From a virus: a stretch of DNA of 56,154 nucleotides. Position numbers and translations under genes: made by a program. The stretch is taken from IMG/VR virus record IMGVR_UViG_3300045988_060580, one strand, 5' to 3'. Positions 2,572-56,015 of the stretch are shown here, in pieces (within the stretch, counting starts at the first letter, position 1; each line of letters begins with the position of its first letter). The notes under the pieces are model-generated. The model ran no database searches. It worked only from the letters and a program-made list of their open reading frames with translations, and had not been told where the DNA came from.

Positions 2572-3186
2572 ATGCATAAATGGGCTAAACAGATTATGGA
2601 ATGTGTCAAGGCTAAGGTTGAAGCAATCGGATTAGATAGCTTTGAGGGGCAGAACCTTGACGATTTAAAGGACTTTACAGAAATAGCGAAGAACATAGCT
2701 TGTTTTGACAAAGATTACAGAATTGTTGAAGCTATGGAAAAGTCAGAAGATAATGAAGATATTATGCGTATGCTTGAACAGTACGAAGATTATCCGGACA
2801 GAAGATATTATGACCACTACCGCTATGCAAATGGCAGATTTGCCCCAAAAGGCAAAGGAACATACCGCAGAGGATATGAAGAACCGCCTTATATGCACAT
2901 GTACCCAGAATCAGAGCATATGAGAGATATGGATAGGGATTATGGCAAGATGTACTATACAGAGCCAATGTCTGAAAGTAATTACGACAGAGCAAAGAGA
3001 AACTACACAGAAACTAAGGAAATGCACAAGAATAATACACCAGAAGATAAGGAACACAAGATGAAGTCACTTGACAGCTATACTAAGGAACTTGCAAGCG
3101 ATATTACAGGTATGGTGGCTGATATGTCAGCAGAAGAGAAGAACTTGCTTAGAACAAAGTTAAGCACTCTTGTATCTAAGATATGA
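2572..3186 (+). CDS. Hypothetical Tyr/Arg/Asp/Met-rich protein
   Basis: Long ORF tightly spaced after the previous gene. The RDMDRDYGKMYY-type motifs belong to an uncharacterised Firmicutes family. Confidence 0.65.
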   Translation: MHKWAKQIMECVKAKVEAIGLDSFEGQNLDDLKDFTEIAKNIACFDKDYRIVEAMEKSEDNEDIMRMLEQYEDYPDRRYYDHYRYANGRFAPKGKGTYRRGYEEPPYMHMYPESEHMRDMDRDYGKMYYTEPMSESNYDRAKRNYTETKEMHKNNTPEDKEHKMKSLDSYTKELASDITGMVADMSAEEKNLLRTKLSTLVSKI

Positions 3187-3193
3187 TTTTAAG

Positions 3194-3225
3194 GGCTATG
3201 AGTAGCAATATTCATAGCCTGTTTT
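3194..3225 (+). terminator. Terminator-like hairpin
   Basis: Stem ggctatga/tcatagcc followed by tgtttt. Confidence 0.5.
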
Positions 3226-3245
3226 ATTCAGAAAGGAGCATACAG

Positions 3246-3566
3246 ATGTTTTTTACAATTAATGGTACAAATTGGCGAGTGCAATATGAAAATTCAAATT
3301 CGGGTGAATTAAAGCGGTCAGACAATGTTTCTGTACTAGGTGTAACTGATAGAAATACGCATACAATTTATCTGTCAAATGCCTTGCGTGGATTTATGGA
3401 ACGCAAAGTGCTGATACACGAAGTGTGCCATGCAATCTGTATGTCCTATGATGTGTATTTGCCAATAGAGCAGGAAGAAATATTGTGCGATTTTGTAGCA
3501 ACTTATGGCGATGAAGTATTTGACATTGTTGATATGGTGCTTGGAGCAGTTAGGAGAGTGGGATAA
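3246..3566 (+). CDS. Small HExxH zinc-metalloprotease-like protein
   Basis: RBS gaaaggag. Contains an HEVCH motif, similar to SprT or ImmA/IrrE-type small proteases. Confidence 0.5.
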   Translation: MFFTINGTNWRVQYENSNSGELKRSDNVSVLGVTDRNTHTIYLSNALRGFMERKVLIHEVCHAICMSYDVYLPIEQEEILCDFVATYGDEVFDIVDMVLGAVRRVG

Positions 3567-3712
3567 TGAGTATTGATGAGCTGTTAAAGATAATTCAAAA
3601 GACTAATCCGACTATGACAAAAGAATTATTGATATATGAGCTTAGTCAATGCCGGTATTCAAGTAAAGCATTAATTTATACAGAAAGTTGTTGTGTTGAC
3701 AATAATATTTAA
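3566..3712 (+). CDS. Small hypothetical protein (48 aa)
   Basis: TAATG start/stop overlap. Its 3' end contains the cas5-like promoter. Confidence 0.3.
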   Translation: MSIDELLKIIQKTNPTMTKELLIYELSQCRYSSKALIYTESCCVDNNI

Positions 3713-3724
3713 AAATGCTATTAT
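3696..3724 (+). promoter_or_regulatory. Near-consensus sigma-70/SigA promoter (TTGACA-17-TATTAT)
   Basis: TTGACA at 3696..3701, 17-nt spacer, TATTAT at 3719..3724. Confidence 0.65.
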
Positions 3725-3786
3725 TTAATAGATGTAAACAATTGATAATTAATATATCATTTTACCTTAATAGAACCATAGTGGAA

Positions 3787-3831
3787 AGTTGCATTGATAC
3801 ATTTTTGTATAGGTGCAACTTATTTTATTTT
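3787..3831 (+). promoter_or_regulatory. Leader terminator/attenuator hairpin immediately before the cas5-like RBS
   Basis: Stem agttgca...tgcaact with an inner atac/gtat stem, followed by tattttatttt. It lies in a roughly 110-nt untranslated leader. Confidence 0.5.
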
Positions 3832-3843
3832 AGAGGTTTTATT

Positions 3844-4542
3844 ATGAGAGTTGTAAGATTAAAAATGTATCAAGAAATGGCTAGATTCAATAATCCATCA
3901 GCGCCAAAAGGTGCAGATTGCTACCCTTTGCCACCATTTAGCACAGTTAATGGGTTTATTCATTCAATGTGTCAATGGAAAAGGTATCATAAATTAGATT
4001 ATTTTGTTACTGGCAAAGGAATTTATAATACTAAGGTGCAAAAAGAATGGCACGGTGGCTATAATTTCAACAAAATTAGCGATGAAATGCTTAAGCGTTG
4101 GGATGTTATAACAGATTATGCAGACGGAAGCCATACCGGCTGGGTTAGTACAGTTAAATATCATCTAATGCTAGTTGATTTATATACAACTATATACATC
4201 AAAGCTGATGATAGTGACATAGATGATATATACCATGCTTTACTAAATCCGCCGGTATATCCATCATTGGGCGAATATGGTGATTTATGTAAGATTGAAG
4301 CAGTAGATATTGTAGAACTTAAGGAGCTTGATAAATGTGTACCTGCTCCACTTGCTATGCAATCTTATATTCCTGTTAATAAAGGCAATTTTGCAGGAAC
4401 TATCTATAGAATTAATAACAAATATGAAATTATCAAAGGGCTTAGGCGATTCCAAAAAGTTCCTTGTTACTTAGTGGATAAAGAACAGGAAGTTGTTAGT
4501 AATCTTTTTGATGACGATAAACCGATTATTTTTGTAGATTAA
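3844..4542 (+). CDS. cas5: Solitary Cas5-family (subtype I-B-like RAMP) protein, 232 aa
   Basis: The N-terminus MRVVRLKMYQEMARFNNP....CYPLPPFSTVNGFIHSMC and the C-terminal block HLMLVDLYTTIYIK....LLNPPVYPSLGEYGDLCKIEAVDIVEL match the Cas5t/Cas5h signature blocks as I remember them. There are no other cas genes and no array in the window. Confidence 0.6.
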   Translation: MRVVRLKMYQEMARFNNPSAPKGADCYPLPPFSTVNGFIHSMCQWKRYHKLDYFVTGKGIYNTKVQKEWHGGYNFNKISDEMLKRWDVITDYADGSHTGWVSTVKYHLMLVDLYTTIYIKADDSDIDDIYHALLNPPVYPSLGEYGDLCKIEAVDIVELKELDKCVPAPLAMQSYIPVNKGNFAGTIYRINNKYEIIKGLRRFQKVPCYLVDKEQEVVSNLFDDDKPIIFVD

Positions 4543-4548
4543 TTTAAA

Positions 4549-4600
4549 CCCCACGGAATATAATGCAACTTTTTTGCTACCTCCGTGGGGCTCTCTTTTA
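4549..4600 (+). terminator. Strong hairpin terminator after the cas5-like gene
   Basis: 9-bp stem ccccacgga/tccgtgggg followed by ctctctttta. Confidence 0.6.
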
Positions 4601-4604
4601 TATT

Positions 4605-4843
4605 CGTAATTTCGATTTTGACAATTTTCAAAATCCGGTTCAGATTTCGTTCAAATCCTACTTAAAAAATTGAAAAAATTTTCTCATAAAATATAATGTG
4701 AAATTTTTGAAACCCCCGTCATATGCAATTTTGAAATCCAAAAATCGGTTACACAGAATTTTAATTTTTGCTCCCGATTTCGTTCGGATTTGCCCTGAAA
4801 AATTGATGAAAAACTTTAACAGATTAAAGTGCATTATATAAAC
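4605..4843 (+). repeat. Diverged tandem duplication (two units of about 110-135 nt)
   Basis: Shared blocks in the same order: aaaatc(c)ggtt, gatttcgttc, aaaaattga(t)gaaaaa, tata(a)t. Confidence 0.55.
4670..4697 (+). promoter_or_regulatory. Promoter-like element TTGAAA-16-TATAAT
   Basis: Seen in unit 1 of the duplication. No ORF follows. Confidence 0.45.
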
Positions 4844-4865
4844 TTGACCGGCTGCGATTCGTGCT

Positions 4866-4895
4866 TGTTTTGACTTTGTGACTTTGTGATTTGAC
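4866..4895 (+). repeat. Short tandem TTTG(T)GAC repeats
   Basis: Sequence gttttgactttgtgactttgtgatttgacc. Confidence 0.6.
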
Positions 4896-4964
4896 CTGTA
4901 CGGTGGTTTTATTGTGTCGGTGTAGACTTATAAGCCTACAGAACAAAACAGCCTTAAAACGCCT

Positions 4965-4993
4965 TTGGCAGCGTTGCATAAAATGGGTATAAT
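4965..4993 (+). promoter_or_regulatory. Promoter TTGGCA-17-TATAAT in non-coding DNA
   Basis: Perfect -10 at 4988..4993. The transcript would run antisense into the 3' end of the leftward genes. Confidence 0.5.
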
Positions 4994-5163
4994 ATGCCCT
5001 TACAAGTTGTGGAAGCTGTCGCCAGTTTTGGCGGATTTTCCAGAACGCACGCCGCCCAACTAGGTACACTTGTACACTTAAAAAGCCTTATATATAAGCA
5101 TAGCATTATTGTATTAATTTTTCAAGGTACGCAAAGAAAAGCATATAAATATATACGCTTAGT

Positions 5164-5202
5164 GCTTGCGGCTGGAATCGAACCAGCCAAACCACAGCAA
5201 GC
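5164..5202 (-). ncRNA. tRNA top-half-like minihelix 1 (6-bp acceptor-like stem + 6-bp T-stem + UUCGAUU loop)
   Basis: Minus-strand sequence: gcttgc-tgtggttt-ggctgg-ttcgatt-ccagcc-gcaagc. Confidence 0.5.
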
Positions 5203-5226
5203 CAAAAAGGGCGCAGATTGTACGCC
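5196..5226 (-). terminator. Rho-independent terminator of the 5240..5524 gene
   Basis: Minus-strand sequence: agggcg..cgccct followed by ttttt. Confidence 0.6.
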
Positions 5227-5239
5227 CTTAACCAAGTTA

Positions 5240-5524
5240 TTAATTGTTAAATTCATAAAATAGACCGCTTTTATTATAACAAGTTGTAAGCTTTTTTAAG
5301 CCATAAAAAATATCATAGTTACAATCAAAAACAGCTTGTGGACCCGTGTATATAATTACGCTTCGCCCATTATCCCAAAAAGAAAAATCTGTTATTTTTT
5401 CAAGCTCCAAGATTTCGGCCGCCTTTTTCCCATAGATAAATATAAATTTTTCTAAATTTCCGCGGATTTCTCCGGCTGTTAAAGTGTCTAATTTTTCATA
5501 TATTGTCATATCGTAGACCTCCAT
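5240..5524 (-). CDS. Hypothetical protein (94 aa)
   Basis: ORF with an upstream RBS-like ttaggggataatatt on the minus strand. Confidence 0.55.
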   Translation of the reverse strand: MEVYDMTIYEKLDTLTAGEIRGNLEKFIFIYGKKAAEILELEKITDFSFWDNGRSVIIYTGPQAVFDCNYDIFYGLKKLTTCYNKSGLFYEFNN

Positions 5525-5550
5525 ATTCTTAATATTATCCCCTAAAAGGA

Positions 5551-5594
5551 AAAACCACCGCCGGTATCGGTCCGGCTGGCATTCTCTGCGGCGG
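5551..5594 (-). terminator. Hairpin terminator
   Basis: Minus-strand stem ccgccg....cggcgg followed by tggttttt. Confidence 0.5.
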
Positions 5595-5768
5595 TTAATT
5601 TGCTTTTGCTTCTGCTCTTAAAATCTCAATAGCTTCTTGTGTTGTGTGTTCCCTGTACCACTTCCAAGGCTTTTTATATGCTTTTGCAAGTGCAAAGTCT
5701 TCATGCTTTTCTGTCAAAATGCGTCTAACTTCTAAAAATGCCTTTTTTGCTTCTTCTAATCTGTTCAT
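5595..5768 (-). CDS. Small hypothetical protein (57 aa, MNRLEEAKKAF...)
   Basis: Below the ORF-track cut-off. RBS agagagg lies 8 nt upstream on the minus strand. Confidence 0.45.
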   Translation of the reverse strand: MNRLEEAKKAFLEVRRILTEKHEDFALAKAYKKPWKWYREHTTQEAIEILRAEAKAN

Positions 5769-5809
5769 AATGTTTTTACCTCTCTTTTATTTATTCCCCT
5801 AAAGGGTAG

Positions 5810-5850
5810 AGCAAGCCGGGGAATCGAACCCCGGAAGCGCCAGCCTTGCT
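5810..5850 (-). ncRNA. tRNA top-half-like minihelix 2
   Basis: Minus-strand sequence: agcaag-gctggcgctt-ccgggg-ttcgatt-ccccgg-cttgct. Same architecture as element 1 with different stem sequences. Confidence 0.5.
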
Positions 5851-5852
5851 AA

Positions 5853-6110
5853 TTATGCTAAGAGCTGCAAAAGCTCCGCGCGTTTAGTCTGTATCAATTC
5901 CTTTGCTTTCATAAAATCAACCGCGCCGCCTGTCATATGTTCAATATATCTTGCCGCGTCGATATATGCGTCAAATTCTGCCTTGTATGCCTCATCGAAA
6001 GCATTTTCAAGTTCTGCGTTTTCTGGCTCTTTTGTATATCTTGCCTCTGCTTCGTCTGCGGCTTTCTCTAACTGTTCCAACTTCTTAATCTTTTCAAGTA
6101 AAATCTTCAT
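5853..6110 (-). CDS. Acidic helical hypothetical protein (85 aa)
   Basis: ORF in a tightly packed leftward gene set. Confidence 0.6.
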   Translation of the reverse strand: MKILLEKIKKLEQLEKAADEAEARYTKEPENAELENAFDEAYKAEFDAYIDAARYIEHMTGGAVDFMKAKELIQTKRAELLQLLA

Positions 6111-6113
6111 AAT

Positions 6114-6284
6114 TCACACCTCCTTGTTAATATGTTCAATCTTGAATCTGTCGCGTGTATCTTTTGGAATAACTAAATTAACAAAATCCTCCGCTAAAAC
6201 TAAGGTATCAAATTGTGCCACAATTTTTTCTTTAGGACTTTCAAATTTACTGAAATATTGTGTTTCTATAACTTGCCAATTCAT
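6114..6284 (-). CDS. Small hypothetical protein (56 aa, MNWQVIETQYF...)
   Basis: AAGGAGGA RBS on the minus strand. Below the ORF-track cut-off. Confidence 0.5.
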   Translation of the reverse strand: MNWQVIETQYFSKFESPKEKIVAQFDTLVLAEDFVNLVIPKDTRDRFKIEHINKEV

Positions 6285-6296
6285 ATTTAATCCTCC

Positions 6297-6677
6297 TTAT
6301 TCTGTAATCCTTTCAAATATAACTATTGTTTTGCGTGCGTTTTCTCTCTTCTTTTCAGCCATATAACTATGGCGGCGGCTCTTTAATGCCTTTCTTGCTG
6401 TCTCTATGCTATTAACTCCCCACGCTGCGGCTTCTCTTAATAACTCAACCTCTTCTTTTGGCAACTTAATAGCTCTTAAAGTGTCGGAGTTGATAGAGTA
6501 ATCATCTTTAATTCCTGGATACAAATCTTGACAAAGTGGAATATATTCATCACTCCCCATATTCTCGCCGATATTCCATACATAAAAACCGAATGGAATC
6601 TTTCCGACTATCTTATAAATATCTGTTTTCCATAATGTTTCGCTTGTAATTGTGTCACCCTTAACTTCAAATCTCAT
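6297..6677 (-). CDS. Hypothetical protein (126 aa, start trimmed to MRFEVKGD)
   Basis: The track ORF extends into the operator region. The internal ATG at 6677 is the likelier start. Confidence 0.55.
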   Translation of the reverse strand: MRFEVKGDTITSETLWKTDIYKIVGKIPFGFYVWNIGENMGSDEYIPLCQDLYPGIKDDYSINSDTLRAIKLPKEEVELLREAAAWGVNSIETARKALKSRRHSYMAEKKRENARKTIVIFERITE

Positions 6678-6796
6678 AACCTTGTACCATTTCGCCGACT
6701 GTGATATAATCGGCTTACCTTTCTTTTTGATTGGTGGCGGTTCGTTTCCTTGGTCGGGCGACCGCCTTTTTATTTGCAAGATTATAATAACAAATA

Positions 6797-6866
6797 TAAG
6801 GCACAAAAACAATATACAAATTGTACAAATATAAGGCACATAATTTGTACAATATTTATAAGGCAC
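6797..6866. promoter_or_regulatory. Operator array: TAAGGCACA x3 interleaved with TTGTACAA palindromes x2
   Basis: TAAGGCACA at 6797, 6832 and 6858. TTGTACAA at 6821 and 6845. Confidence 0.55.
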
Positions 6867-6907
6867 AAAATAACACAATGTATATAATAAAGAAGTTAAA
6901 ATATCAA

Positions 6908-6939
6908 TTGACACATAAGGCACAAAATGATATTATAAT
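6908..6939 (+). promoter_or_regulatory. Promoter/operator cassette 1 (TTGACA, TAAGGCACA in the spacer, ATGATATTATAAT)
   Basis: 32/33 identical to 7181..7212. Confidence 0.65.
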
Positions 6940-6971
6940 TACAATAATATTATATGAGGAGATAAAAGTAT

Positions 6972-7166
6972 ATGCAGGAATTAAAGACAAGCGAAAGCCA
7001 ACGAAAAGCCGTATATAAATATGATGATAAGTTTGAGCGTGTTAATTGCAGATTTGCAAAAGGCACAAAGGAGCGCATAGAAAAGCTTGGATACAAGAGC
7101 ACAAACGACTTTATTAAACTTGCAGTAGCGGAAAAGCTGGAGCATGACGAAAAAATCTTAAAATAA
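6972..7166 (+). CDS. Ribbon-helix-helix (CopG/Arc-like) transcriptional regulator
   Basis: The pattern ERVNCRFAKGTKERIEKLG...NDFIKLAVAEKL is typical of RHH proteins. It is flanked by repeated operators. Confidence 0.6.
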   Translation: MQELKTSESQRKAVYKYDDKFERVNCRFAKGTKERIEKLGYKSTNDFIKLAVAEKLEHDEKILK

Positions 7167-7180
7167 GGCACAAAAAACTA

Positions 7181-7219
7181 TTGACATATAAGGCACAAAA
7201 TGATATTATAATTGTACAA
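7181..7219 (+). promoter_or_regulatory. Promoter/operator cassette 2 plus a TTGTACAA palindrome
   Basis: Duplicate of cassette 1. TAAGGCACA at 7164 and 7189, TTGTACAA at 7212. Confidence 0.65.
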
Positions 7220-7258
7220 ATTAAGAAAGGGCAGCCGAAAGGCTGAAAGGTGGAAAGG

Positions 7259-7453
7259 ATGAAAACAATCGAATTATTAAACAAGGTTGTTGAGCTTGGA
7301 TTTAGCAGAGAAAAGGCACTTGCAGACATAGATGCAAGCCTTGACGAAATGATTGGAGCAGAGAACAGAAAGCCAATCGCAGAGGAAGAAATAAGCGAAG
7401 ATCTGGCGAATGATATTTTATTCGGCTTTAAATGTGAAAAAGAAAGCAATTAA
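7259..7453 (+). CDS. Acidic hypothetical protein
   Basis: RBS aaaggtggaaagg. The 5' UTR has a GAAA-tetraloop hairpin (cagcc gaaa ggctg). Confidence 0.55.
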   Translation: MKTIELLNKVVELGFSREKALADIDASLDEMIGAENRKPIAEEEISEDLANDILFGFKCEKESN

Positions 7454-7475
7454 GAAAGGTTAAAAGGTGGACGAT

Positions 7476-7739
7476 ATGAAAGCATATTACACGAGCATAT
7501 ACAACGAGGGGATGATTGGTAAAGTATTAAGACATAACACAGAAGAAGAAGCTGAAAAATATCTTGATGAAGAGTGGGACAGGCTCACAGAAAGAGAACA
7601 GAAAGGATTTAAGCCAGGAACGGCGGACAGCTTCAAGGCGTTTGAAATCGAAGCAACAGAAGAACAGCTTGAACAGATAGAATCTGGAGACATTGCCCCA
7701 GAAGAGCTTGAAATAAGAGTTATTAAGAACATGTTATAA
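7476..7739 (+). CDS. Acidic hypothetical protein
   Basis: RBS aaaaggtgg 6 nt before the ATG. Confidence 0.55.
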   Translation: MKAYYTSIYNEGMIGKVLRHNTEEEAEKYLDEEWDRLTEREQKGFKPGTADSFKAFEIEATEEQLEQIESGDIAPEELEIRVIKNML

Positions 7740-7744
7740 TTATA

Positions 7745-7778
7745 AAGCGATGTATAACAGATATACATCGCTTTTTTA
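7745..7778 (+). terminator. Rho-independent terminator
   Basis: 12-bp stem aagcgatgtata/tatacatcgctt followed by a T run. Confidence 0.8.
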
Positions 7779-7939
7779 ACGCCTATTGATTAATTATATT
7801 TATTGTGTTATTATATTGCTAATAATTAAATATATAAGATTTACACCCGATAATATTAATATTGTTATCGGGTTATTTTTATGTTATTAATATATAAAAT
7901 AATAATTAGCTGGATAAGTTCCAGCAGAAAGGGGAATAT

Positions 7940-10041: not shown

Positions 10042-10113
10042 TGCACCATAGCCAAGCGGTAAGGCACAGAGCTTTGATCTCTGTATGCGTCGGTTCGAAT
10101 CCGACTGGTGTAG
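10042..10113 (+). tRNA. tRNA-Gln(UUG): tRNA-Gln (anticodon UUG)
   Basis: Manual cloverleaf: acceptor tgcacca/tggtgta with U1-A72, anticodon arm cagag-cTTTGat-ctctg, T-arm gtcgg-ttcgaat-ccgac. Confidence 0.8.
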
Positions 10114-10326: not shown

Positions 10327-10409
10327 GCCGATATGGGATAAAGGTATTCCAATAGCTTGCTAAGCTATCCAACAGAAATGTTGTTCGTGTTCGATTCACG
10401 ATGTCGGCG
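10327..10409 (+). tRNA. tRNA-Ser(GCU): tRNA-Ser (anticodon GCU), class II
   Basis: Acceptor gccgata/tgtcggc, anticodon arm atagc-ttGCTaa-gctat, variable arm caaca-gaaa-tgttg, T-arm tcgtg-ttcgatt-cacga. Confidence 0.8.
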
Positions 10410-10485
10410 CTTTGAAAGCACTTCTTAGGTCTGCGTGCGTAATGCTGTTTGCGGGCTTATCCTAGGTTAAGAGGTGTGAGTAAGT

Positions 10486-10603: not shown

Positions 10604-10675
10604 CGGATAGTAGTTCAGTTGGGAGTAACGCTTGATTTATTCAAGTAGTCACAGGTTCAAGTCCTGTCTATCCGA
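10604..10675 (+). tRNA. tRNA-Lys-like gene with abnormal anticodon loop (7-nt register gives anticodon UUA; alternative 5-nt loop UUUAU)
   Basis: Acceptor cggatag/ctatccg, D-arm tagttcagttgggag, T-arm acagg-ttcaagt-cctgt, anticodon region cttga-tttat-tcaag. Confidence 0.55.
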
Positions 10676-10798
10676 TTACAACAAACTAGCTTGACGAAGC
10701 GAAAAGCACTTCCGCTGTGCCTGTTTGTTGTTTTTATTGATCAAGCGGAGTGTGTATCACAGGCATACATAAATAATATCAAGCGGAGGTATTCGATT

Positions 10799-49746: not shown

Positions 49747-50590
49747 CTAAAAACCAAAGAAAGGAACAGGTTGTGCGCACATAAAACCGAGGTTTCCTTT
49801 TGGCAGATTTATGAATTTTGACAATTATTCTTGTGATAATCAAATGTCTATATTTGACTTCACAAGAGAACCAATTAGCATTACAAAGCCTATCCGCTTG
49901 ATAGAATTATTCGCCGGCTACGGAAGTCAGGCAATGGCACTAAAGAGAATAGGTGCTAAATTTGAGCATTACAGAGTTGTGGAGTTTGATAAGTATGCCA
50001 TAGCAAGCTATAACGCAGTGCATGGCACAGATTTTCCTACAATGGATATAACTAAGGTTCATGCAGAAGATTTGAATATCTGCGACACAGATGCATTCAC
50101 TTACTTACTTACTTACTCGTTTCCATGCACCGATTTATCAGTTGCCGGAAAACAAGCCGGAATGTCTAAGGGCAGCGGCACAAGAAGCGGTCTGTTGTGG
50201 GAAGTTGAGAGAATACTAACAGAAATTAGAGATAGCAACGGAGAATTACCACAGATTTTGTTCATGGAGAATGTGCCACAAGTGCATAGTCAGGATAATA
50301 TGCCCGACTTTAGAAAGTGGCTAGTTTTCCTTGAAAGCCTTGGTTACACAAATTACTATCAAGACTTGAATGCTAAAAATTATGGTGTAGCACAAAATCG
50401 TGAAAGGTGTTTTATGTTTTCATTCCTGGGTGAGTACAATTACCATTTTCCACAGCCTATACCACTCAAAAAGAAGTTGAAAGACTATCTTGAGGATAAT
50501 GTAGATGAAAAGTATTACATCAACAATGAAAAGGCTGACAAGCTGATAAAACAGCTTATTGACAACGGCACATTGCCACAACACAATCTT

Positions 50591-50637
<47 letters not shown>

Positions 50638-50927
50638 TTGCGTTGACGGAACAATCAATAAGCCGCAGCAAAGAGAAGTTGCAAACTGCATCAAGGCAAG
50701 ATGTGACTGCGGAATATCAAACTTGCGGTCAGACGGAAACTTGGTTGTTAAAGGATATGGGAGAGACGGCAGACAAACAGATTGATGTAGCCGTAACTCT
50801 TAGGGCAAGAGATTATAAAGGCCTTGATAATTATGGAAGCAATGGAGTGATTGAATGGAAAAATTAACAGACGCTATCGGAATAGTGCTTTTTGAAAGTG
50901 AAAAATTCGGTGGCGAAAAGGTACTTA

Positions 50928-54827: not shown

Positions 54828-56015
54828 ATGGGAAAGGATTTAAAAGGTAAAGAGCTAGGAAATGGAATCTGTCAACGGAAGAACGGAAAATATTGTGGCA
54901 GGTATGTTGATAGATTCGGTCAGAGAAAAAGCATTTATGACGATAAACTGTCAGAATTAAGAAAGAAACTTGCAATTGCAATAGCTGATAGTCAGTCATT
55001 TACAAGCATAAGAGATAACATTAAGTTGGACGATTGGTTTAATCGTTGGGTAGATGTGTACAAAAAGAAAAGTGTACGCCCCAATACACTTAGGGAATAC
55101 ACTCACATATACACTAAGAATATATCACCTTTTTTGGGAAATCGCAACATAAATTCCTTTGTTAAGTCGGATATTCAACAATTAATTGATATTACTGACG
55201 ATAAGGGCTATGGATATGAACGGCAAAACAAAATTAAAGTTATATTATCAGACATGTTTTCAAGAGCGATGGAAGATGAACTTATGTCCAGAAATCCAAC
55301 AAAAGGAGTTAAATTGAGGGCAAAAAAGGAAGTTTTCGCTAAAGCATTAACAATTGATGAACAAGAAGTATTTTTTGAATGCTGTGCTGGCACATTTTAC
55401 GACAATCTATTTAATATTGCTGTAAATACAGGGTTGAGACCGGGAGAACTTTTTGCCTTAACTGAAAATGATATTGATTTTGAAAATGGGCTAATAAATG
55501 TATCTAAGACGCTTGTATATCAGAAATACCTTGATGATGAACGCAAGGAATTTCATTTAGAAGAGCCTAAAACAGAACAGAGCAATAGGAAAGTGCCTAT
55601 GAACAGCTTATGCAGAAAGTATCTTGAAAGGCAGATAAGGCAGAAGCATGTTATCAAAAACAAACAGCCTAAAGAGCAGAACGACTATTTATTTACGACA
55701 AAATTTAACACACCACTTAATTCAGTTTTATACAGTGCGGCGATTGATTCTATTGTAGATACAATAAATCTTGTCCATTCTGTTGATGAAGAAATGGAAT
55801 ATTTCAGCGGTCACGCTTTAAGACACACATTTGCAACAAGATGCTTTGAGGCGGGTGTGCAGCCGAAAGTTGTTCAATCATATTTAGGTCATGCAACATT
55901 ACAAATGACAATGGATTTATACACACATGTTATGCCACAGAAAGCAAGTGACGACATTGAAAGAATTGTTAAAAACGAAAATAAAATTGTTGATTTTGTG
56001 AAAAACGTGGTGTAA
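54828..56015 (+). CDS. int: Tyrosine recombinase / phage integrase
   Basis: Motifs GLRPGEL...HALRHTFATRC....LGHATLQMTMDLYTH (R..HxxR..Y). Confidence 0.9.
   Translation: MGKDLKGKELGNGICQRKNGKYCGRYVDRFGQRKSIYDDKLSELRKKLAIAIADSQSFTSIRDNIKLDDWFNRWVDVYKKKSVRPNTLREYTHIYTKNISPFLGNRNINSFVKSDIQQLIDITDDKGYGYERQNKIKVILSDMFSRAMEDELMSRNPTKGVKLRAKKEVFAKALTIDEQEVFFECCAGTFYDNLFNIAVNTGLRPGELFALTENDIDFENGLINVSKTLVYQKYLDDERKEFHLEEPKTEQSNRKVPMNSLCRKYLERQIRQKHVIKNKQPKEQNDYLFTTKFNTPLNSVLYSAAIDSIVDTINLVHSVDEEMEYFSGHALRHTFATRCFEAGVQPKVVQSYLGHATLQMTMDLYTHVMPQKASDDIERIVKNENKIVDFVKNVV

Follow-up and report, generated by a model that had tools for sequence, protein, structure and literature searches.

A solitary, divergent type I-B Cas5 homologue behind a putative crRNA-like leader in gut Lachnospira phages: a candidate anti-CRISPR module

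[quoted passage not shown] In that preprint, AcrIB3 blocks target DNA binding in a CRISPR interference (CRISPRi) assay and co-immunoprecipitates with Cas6/Cascade, over-expression of genuine Cas5 gives no inhibition, homologues of AcrIB3 are reported in Listeria only, and a survey of IMG/VR counts 358 orphan viral cas genes. Our subject is a solitary Cas5b-like gene (which we refer to as vCas5), together with the leader in front of it, in a stretch of viral DNA of 56,154 nucleotides, IMG/VR record IMGVR_UViG_3300045988_060580 (hereafter the window, by which we mean the whole stretch at its full length). The first-pass annotation of this DNA had held that no characterised phage-borne solo Cas5 was known, a statement which the AcrIB3 work (10.1101/2023.06.24.545427) makes outdated, and had proposed, as one of several possibilities, that the protein mimics a Cascade subunit, a route of inhibition which is experimentally established for AcrIB3 and which may, by analogy, apply here.

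Two classes of small RNA are the nearest described counterparts of the leader. Racrs are repeat mimics which are bound by Cas6 and nucleate aberrant Cas7 filaments; inhibition resides in the stretch upstream of the Cas6 cut, the handle being dispensable, and in the case of RacrIC1 the RNA shares a transcript with AcrIC5 (Camara-Wilpert et al. 2023, PMC10651486, the main text of which makes no mention of type I-B). Cracrs are viral RNAs resembling CRISPR RNA (crRNA), with short pseudo-spacers and a terminator, which reprogram Cas complexes so as to silence cas or toxin promoters, often alongside a co-encoded anti-CRISPR protein (Acr) (Liu et al., bioRxiv 10.1101/2024.10.29.618823). Type I-B Cracr candidates are predicted in that preprint, which gives pseudo-spacer lengths of 23-27 nucleotides (nt) for host CreR/CreA and 17-21 nt for viral I-F Cracrs and does not mention Cas5. 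A link between such an RNA and a Cas5 homologue is found in neither the Racr paper (PMC10651486) nor the Cracr preprint (10.1101/2024.10.29.618823).

In the window, a lone cas5-like gene on a temperate phage is preceded by a leader which we think better read as a crRNA-like mini-array, made up of promoter, handle, pseudo-spacer, repeat mimic and terminator, than as the attenuator-like leader first annotated. We consider it probable that gene and leader form a two-part module against type I-B immunity, in which an AcrIB3-like faulty Cascade subunit is joined by a co-transcribed crRNA mimic. The features of the unit are as follows (the handle mimic and the ribosome-binding site, RBS, were read from the sequence):

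3696..3724, plus strand: sigma-70-type promoter, TTGACA-17-TATTAT with extended TG, an 11/12 match
3732..3739, plus strand: crRNA 5'-handle mimic ATGTAAAC, 7 nt after the -10 box
3740..3763, plus strand: pseudo-spacer AATTGATAATTAATATATCATTTT, 24 nt; the other major allele is AATAGATAACTATTATATCATTTT
3764..3786, plus strand: pseudo-repeat ACCTTAATAGAACCATAGTGGAA, a mimic of host I-B repeat positions 1-23 (before the Cas6 cut)
3786..3831, plus strand: intrinsic-terminator-like hairpin and U-tract ATTTTATTTT, with arms at 3786-3801 and 3806-3821
3832..3836, plus strand: RBS AGAGG, 7 nt before the ATG
3844..4542, plus strand: solo Cas5b-like gene (vCas5), ATG 3844 to TAA 4542, 232 amino acids (aa)
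4549..4590, plus strand: 3' hairpin, a 9-bp GC-rich stem CCCCACGGA/TCCGTGGGG followed by CTCTCTTTTAT

Translation from the ATG at 3844 to the TAA at 4542 reproduced exactly the 232-aa product and the peptides quoted in the first-pass annotation; an alternative open reading frame (ORF) of 275 aa starting at 3715 has no RBS and crosses the leader. The protein matches NCBIfam TIGR01895 (cas_Cas5t) with an E-value of 1.8e-23 and 83.3 bits, its residues 1-218 aligning to model positions 1-204 of 217, and the match is full length though its score falls under the curated cutoff of 96.7. Pfam PF09704 is matched by the N-terminus alone (E=0.042, 14.2 bits against a cutoff of 23), and the PADLOC Cas5b model PDLC00947 is matched with E=4.8e-24; on this model vCas5 scores 83 bits, AcrIB3 88 and the host Cas5b 106. 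A profile built from the family in turn finds proteins annotated as Cas5b/Cas5t with E-values of about 1e-56, and an exhaustive HMMER search returned 662 cluster representatives. The AlphaFold2 (AF2) model, built from 76 sequences, has a predicted local distance difference test (pLDDT) score of 94.1 and a predicted template modelling (pTM) score of 0.86. The best Foldseek matches of this model in the PDB are all Cas5 chains of type I Cascade complexes with probability 1.00, led by the I-B chain 8fcj_A (TM 0.57/0.62) and followed by I-E, I-A, Synechocystis I-B and I-C chains. Databases are otherwise silent on the protein: UniProt/BFVD labels it 'Uncharacterized protein' only, PHROGs has no family for it, and a PDB sequence search with vCas5 gave no match. 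The Cas5 identity first proposed is borne out by the sub-cutoff TIGR01895 match and by the Cascade Cas5 fold, and the replacement of canonical LGR[RYH]ED by LGEYGD is real; vCas5 is a true homologue of type I-B Cas5, though a divergent one which departs from the orthodox form of the family. With canonical Cas5b/Cas5t it has in common the RAMP fold, its length and a core of conserved residues (P28-L29-P30-P31, S33, G37, H40, C43, G57, R85, G99, S141-L142-G143, D147 and R201). It differs from them in sequence, being about 33% identical to the Cas5b of L182, a complete type I-B locus to which we return below, and in lying below the family cutoff and outside an operon.

The gene is solitary, as first annotated. 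Iterated hidden Markov models (HMMs) for cas6, cas8b, cas7, cas3 and cas4 found no such gene at any locus of the clade described below, the window included, the same models recovering 55-80 members in other loci. When all eight Cas proteins of the host I-B system were used as phmmer queries (E<=10), the vCas5 ORF was the only match, and no CRISPR array was found in the window by Tandem Repeats Finder (TRF), Rfam or a k-mer array finder. Between 3500 and 5300, Rfam at a permissive threshold gave neither a CRISPR-DR nor any other credible family. The phage is temperate, again as first claimed, because a tyrosine integrase (54828-56015) closes the end of the window and a prophage on a 407-kb bacterial contig (locus L001) carries the gene in a copy of 92% identity. 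In the bacterial DNA flanking that prophage, the encoded proteins are identical to proteins of Lachnospira pectinoschiza / L. rogosae, and the phage is a common Lachnospira phage of the human gut: IMG/VR holds 218 relatives of the window type (gut phages of about 56 kb), the best 80 of which are at least 90% identical.

Like AcrIB3, vCas5 is a full-length I-B Cas5 homologue carried alone by a temperate phage (237 aa in AcrIB3, 232 aa here) and faces a host with an active I-B system. The two proteins are nevertheless only 28% identical, AcrIB3 keeps LGRHED where vCas5 has LGEYGD, AcrIB3 is from Listeria whereas the vCas5 clade belongs to phages of gut Clostridia, and the activity of AcrIB3 was shown by assay while vCas5 is known here from its sequence and a structural model. 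A crRNA-like leader is not described for AcrIB3 in the available part of its preprint (10.1101/2023.06.24.545427). Table S3 of the same work lists IMGVR_UViG_3300007353_000004 and 3300029054_000005 (g__Lachnospira, cas5, CAS-I-B), which correspond, coordinates included, to our loci L247 and L246 and encode a protein 89% identical to vCas5; it also has 3300006168_000014, which is identical to P0022. That table is a BLAST-based catalogue and comes without clade analysis, function, host arrays or an adjacent crRNA-like cassette. The gene family is therefore already catalogued as orphan viral cas5, and its link with a crRNA-like cassette is previously unreported.

In a neighbour-joining (NJ) tree of 55 sequences with bootstrap, vCas5 falls within a clade of 20 sequences (96% bootstrap) that excludes AcrIB3 and every operon-embedded Cas5b. 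The contexts of 8 of the 20 members were examined (the window's two near-identical relatives counted) and all are solo. AcrIB3 groups weakly (35-60% support) with operon Cas5b proteins of Bacilli, which suggests that the vCas5 clade and AcrIB3 were co-opted separately, in an NJ tree where the position of AcrIB3 is poorly resolved. Among homologues in species-representative genomes, 79 of 80 sit in cas6-cas8b-cas7-cas5-cas3-cas4 operons. The first-pass annotation had reasoned that the gene would be a fragment of a decayed locus if its homologues always lay inside complete cas operons, and this is not what we found, since the homologues in the clade sit outside them. The clade spans 32-94% identity, and its members have changed at positions which are invariant in operon Cas5b (Q10, S20, Y73, L109, R144, E146 and W203), the LGR[RYH]ED motif becoming LGEYGD in the window's subclade; they also have invariant residues of their own (W45, G59, G71-G72, F203 and P227). 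Two replacements, Y15F and W203F, are common to the vCas5 clade and AcrIB3 at positions otherwise invariant in operon Cas5b.

The genomic settings of the relatives are typical anti-defence neighbourhoods. A relative of 53% identity (L010) adjoins ArdA and a large serine recombinase; those of 32-38% identity (L004, L014 and L016) form operons of a small ORF, a helix-turn-helix (HTH) gene and the cas5-like gene, placed at the ends of prophages with tail genes on one side and lysis genes on the other; an element with an integrase holds a relative of 34% identity; and the window's own gene borders a hypervariable region. The gene family thus recurs on unrelated phage backbones. The search also brought up records outside this pattern. 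The 'Listeria phage' tblastn matches (H1 and H2) were considered as AcrIB3 and rejected, being a complete Listeria I-B operon with its array: the records (OR846720.1, our L020, and OR848150.1; 'Listeria phage LM 4-11-1'/'LM 4-14-1', UNVERIFIED_ORG) hold a full I-B operon and an array of 30 repeats, and their cas-bearing part is probably bacterial DNA, not phage. The cultured Fusobacterium phage vB_FnuS_FNU4 (OQ808964.1, L021) encodes at 1831-2898 a solo 355-aa putative Cas5 that resembles a long Cas5b variant, and many Fusobacterium orphan entries of cas5 type are in Table S3 of Katz et al. (10.1101/2023.06.24.545427).

The leader was analysed from its promoter onwards. The promoter match is weak by itself, because 13 promoter-like sites occur in the region where 8.9 would be expected, and the evidence for it is conservation: its hexamers are kept in 81 related phages, and lineages of 53-66% identity (L010, L226 and L276) have TTGACA-17-TATTAT as well, which backs the promoter placed at 3696-3724 by the first-pass annotation. 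From the geometry a start site at G3731/A3732 is predicted, and because the handle mimic lies 7 nt past the -10 box the primary transcript would begin with the handle, the 8-nt counterpart of which ends the host repeats as ATGTAAAT/G. The pseudo-spacer that follows is 24 nt long, against 34-39 nt in host spacers. The pseudo-repeat is identical to GATTTAATAGATACATAGTGGAATGTAAAT at 18 of 20 bases over positions 4-23 and has a 13-nt exact match to the repeat of locus L019, which is of Lachnospiraceae type, and in place of the 8-nt handle portion the mimic has the hairpin and U-tract. This hairpin (dG -16.2 kcal/mol, z=-5.7) adjoins the RBS, at which relatives carry GGAGG, and hairpins of unrelated sequence are found at the same place in 8 lineages (z from -3.7 to -5.8). 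A promoter of its own upstream and a rho-independent terminator downstream are thus both predicted for the cassette. At the other end of the unit, the hairpin at 4549-4590, found where a 9-bp terminator had been annotated, has a 24-nt loop with a small inner stem (dG -19.8, z=-3.8) and is probably the terminator of the unit; the consensus terminator scan missed it because the loop is too long. A 13-bp perfect complement between 3794-3806 and 3861-3873 was considered as a regulatory pairing and dropped because it is not conserved in L010.

The case for a mini-array is one of position, conservation and recurrence across lineages, and on these grounds we favour it. Among 81 close relatives the minor-allele frequency is 0.008 in the handle and 0.007 in the pseudo-repeat (0.005-0.008 across the elements, the hairpin included) and 0.046 in the adjacent coding sequence, so that the leader elements are more conserved than the gene, while the pseudo-spacer occurs in the same phages as two discrete alleles between invariant flanks. 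In 6 of 11 independent solo-cas5 lineages (about 11 kb searched in each) the top repeat-like match is in sense orientation and no more than 150 nt away from the solo cas5, where 2.7% is expected (P=1.5e-7). By inspection a similar cassette flanks the solo cas5 in 9 of the 11, upstream of the gene in the window, L276, L226 and L010 and downstream of it in L016, L018, L133, L183 and L225. Pseudo-spacers across these lineages are about 17-32 nt long and some cassettes have two units. A -10 box, 7 nt ending in G and then ATGTAAAN are shared by the window and the independent lineages L276 and L225, other cassettes taking the handle from a complete first repeat. The comparison of host repeats with the leader, which had been suggested at first pass, therefore turned up both a repeat mimic and a handle mimic; the parallel suggestion of repeat similarity in the downstream non-coding island (4600-5207) found none. 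What stands of the earlier interpretation is a lone, divergent I-B Cas5 homologue and the value of setting the repeat beside the leader, and what lacks support is the attenuator, the island and the claim that the gene had no precedent.

Degeneracy of this kind might also be what is left when a phage acquires a fragment of a cas operon with its array and the fragment loses its function. The score below the curated Cas5t cutoff fits such a remnant, as does the fact that the LGRxED motif and the repeat are both degenerate. The vCas5 ORF is, however, intact in more than 200 IMG/VR contigs, its clade is deep and has invariant residues of its own, the leader elements are better conserved than the coding sequence and the AF2 model is confident. 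A remnant is strongly disfavoured, and we regard it as very improbable.

Set beside the described RNAs, the window's cassette resembles a Racr in being a putative solitary phage repeat mimic just past a promoter, and its pseudo-repeat conserves exactly the pre-cut part in which Racr inhibition resides. It differs in adding a 5'-handle mimic and a pseudo-spacer, which make it a mini-array and not a single repeat, and in having a partner protein that is itself a Cas homologue. With Cracrs and CreR it shares a pseudo-repeat, a short pseudo-spacer and a rho-independent terminator, the 24-nt pseudo-spacer being nearer in length to host CreR/CreA than to viral I-F Cracrs, and it differs in that the match which defines Cracrs, between pseudo-spacer and a cas or creT promoter of the host, did not turn up for the window in the host-type DNA searched.

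Host type I-B arrays target these phages. A metagenome scan for arrays with leader-like repeats found 120 gut loci with the repeat G(A/T)TTTAATAGATACATAGTGGAATGTAAAT, and 98 of their 2,163 unique spacers match the phage family, many of them perfectly over 34-39 nt. The window contains 43 such protospacers, of which 38 have a 5'-CCN protospacer-adjacent motif (PAM), the classic one for type I-B, and one host spacer hits the vCas5 gene itself at 3963-3996. Control spacers from other I-B arrays (2,065 in number) gave chance-level partial matches only, and spacers from 60 arrays beside GTDB-representative operons gave no phage match, so that the cognate arrays come from the metagenome scan only. 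One complete I-B locus, L182, has the same repeat type, and its Cas5b is presumably the cognate host protein. At 6449-6553 on the minus strand, upstream of cas6, L182 also has a CreR-like mini-array (psiR1, a 22-nt psiS, psiR2 and a terminator), the pseudo-spacer of which matches CCA+TTGACACATTTTATATG in the cas6 promoter (6643-6662), 17 nt beside a CCA PAM. By its sequence this mini-array fits the published CreR design of autorepression, here in an I-B system of gut Clostridia; the window's cassette has the same design.

This likeness raises a further reading, in which vCas5 and the crRNA-like RNA would recruit host Cas7, Cas8b and Cas6 into a binding-only complex programmed by the phage, which would silence a specific promoter, be it that of the host's cas operon, of a toxin of CreT type, of a further defence system or of a competing phage, with vCas5 marking or adapting the short-spacer complexes. 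The cassette has a handle besides the repeat mimic, for which a pure Racr decoy has no need; it shares its design with a host CreR whose pseudo-spacer finds the cas6 promoter beside a CCA PAM; viral Cracrs with short pseudo-spacers and co-encoded Acrs are documented, and predicted for I-B; and the two discrete pseudo-spacer alleles between invariant flanks would suit a guide. The targets are where this reading falters. The Cracr criterion is at least 9 PAM-proximal matches between a pseudo-spacer and a host cas or creT promoter, and searches of host-type DNA (674 kb), other I-B loci (1.3 Mb) and the phage itself gave no usable PAM-flanked seed match for the window's pseudo-spacer. Seeds of at least 9 nt occur in the I-B loci at the rate of shuffled sequence, and the pseudo-spacer does not resemble that of the L182 CreR. 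One good match (in L317) was discarded because it lies within an array. A match in its favour comes from another lineage, Hominibacterium faecale (L133), where a three-repeat mini-array with pseudo-spacers of 18-20 nt lies downstream of the solo cas5 at about 4274-4400. The 10-nt PAM-proximal seed of its first pseudo-spacer, GTATTACAAA, occurs 21 times across I-B loci, and 15 of these occurrences, in 15 loci, are within cas3 at a conserved coding site which by our reading encodes the VICNTV motif. The L133 mini-array may be a guide against the cas3 coding sequence, or the match, which is effectively one event, could be chance. We think a phage-programmed silencing complex unlikely for the window.

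Cas5 proteins bind the crRNA 5' handle in Cascade, and the transcript of the window's unit is predicted to begin with one, so vCas5 might instead be an RNA-binding regulator or chaperone of its own leader, taking the place of an Aca-like HTH gene and leaving the anti-CRISPR effect wholly to the RNA. The lineages with an upstream cassette (the window, L276, L226 and L010) do lack the adjacent HTH gene of L004, L014 and L016. HTH gene and mini-array are not simple alternatives, however, because L016 has both, while L004 and L014 have the HTH gene without a mini-array. A full Cas5 fold of 232 aa with surfaces conserved across a deep clade is also more than a handle-binding repressor would need, and AcrIB3 inhibits as a protein alone. 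Such an autoregulator we hold to be quite improbable.

We return, then, to the two-part module. By analogy with AcrIB3, vCas5 would be taken into the host Cascade as a faulty subunit, and the complexes containing it would be unable to engage target DNA. Host Cas6 and Cas7 would bind the mini-array RNA, which comes from the same promoter, and Cas5 or vCas5 would bind its handle. The RNA could then serve as a decoy which soaks up subunits, as Racrs do, or as a guide which reprograms them, as Cracrs do, and vCas5 would be translated from transcripts that read through the mini-array terminator. A bolder form of the idea, which we put forward tentatively and consider doubtful, is an obligate module of a counterfeit guide RNA, with a native 5' handle, a short pseudo-spacer and a repeat mimic to which Cas6 would bind, and a counterfeit subunit capping that handle; such a module would have arisen independently of AcrIB3 and be widespread in phages of human-gut Clostridia. 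Here the RNA and vCas5 together would nucleate host Cas7, Cas8b and Cas6 into dead-end sinks or programmable silencers.

Several points weigh against the two-part module. The terminator between promoter and ORF would limit expression of vCas5, and read-through is assumed. The mechanism of AcrIB3 may not transfer, because that protein is only 28% identical to vCas5 and lies outside its clade, and the function of protein and leader RNA alike is one we infer from their sequences. A position weight matrix (PWM) of the full-length 30-nt I-B repeat scores the leader at 4.0, rank 10, where the maximum in shuffled sequence averages 10.1, and on this account we do not claim the repeat mimic in the window alone as significant; the blastn-short repeat match, at 26.3 bits, is unremarkable beside a null distribution with a mean of 24 and its 99th percentile at 30.2. 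The boundaries of the cassette were set by eye, and the comparison restricted to the part before cleavage was chosen after the full-length test had failed, though the Racr mechanism motivates it. A target for the window's pseudo-spacer was not found in I-B loci, host-type DNA or phage, and the assignment of the cognate I-B arrays and L182 to Lachnospira is indirect.

The surroundings of the unit show further features. Two ORFs upstream of vCas5, at 3183-3566, lies a gene for a 127-aa protein with an HExxH motif which matches ImmA/IrrE (Peptidase_M78) below threshold (E=6e-4) and also matches phrog_1233; the gene is syntenic in the relatives of 53% identity. The downstream non-coding island of about 600 nt (4600-5207) is kept by most relatives and contains two near-consensus promoters, at 4670-4697 (TTGAAA-16-TATAAT) and 4965-4993 (TTGGCA-17-TATAAT), as well as a direct repeat of 30 nt shared at 77% between 4690-4719 and the cas5 terminator loop (4557-4586); within the island, 5043-5077 is the target of a host spacer. 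Beyond it, the region 5200-7800 is hypervariable among close relatives. On the minus strand at 5163-5188, following the terminator (5207-5229) of a leftward operon, is a tRNA-like 3' fragment, GGCTGGTTCGATTCCAGCCGCAAGCA (T-arm and 3' strand of the acceptor), with a weak partial Rfam match to tmRNA nearby. A possible role for the fragment is that of attP core for the tyrosine integrase, in which case the vCas5 gene would lie near one end of the prophage after integration. In L001 (4306-5432) the prophage adjoins spoIIAA, spoIIAB and a shortened sigF of 85 aa which has region 2 only, and it may interrupt a sporulation sigma-factor gene in the manner of skin-type intervening elements.

Elsewhere in the window, tRNA-related features lie at 10042-10113, 10327-10410, 10604-10675 and 10679-10746, with three tRNA genes called, Gln(UUG), Ser(GCU) and one with a suppressor-type UUA anticodon, which would read the UAA stop and could be a sign of stop-codon recoding or manipulation of translation. 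An Rfam match to the int-alpA RNA (51.6 bits) comes directly after the tRNA genes. A perfect (GACA) x 11.8 repeat at 50591-50637, within the overlapping ORFs 49811-50785 and 50559-50867, is a candidate site of phase variation by slipped-strand pairing.

Mimicry of Cas proteins is the clearest known route of anti-CRISPR evolution, and for Cas5 the case has so far consisted of one Listeria family. The vCas5 clade adds a second and much larger Cas5 lineage, apparently an independent co-option, in phages which are among the most abundant groups of the human gut and which are heavily targeted by spacers in gut metagenomes. The two replacements common to this clade and AcrIB3, Y15F and W203F, are candidates for what makes a Cas5 'faulty'. 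If protein and leader do cooperate, the module would unite Cas-homologue Acrs, Racr decoys and Cracr regulators in one unit, and would, if true, be a compact natural tool with which to switch off or re-program type I-B Cascade.

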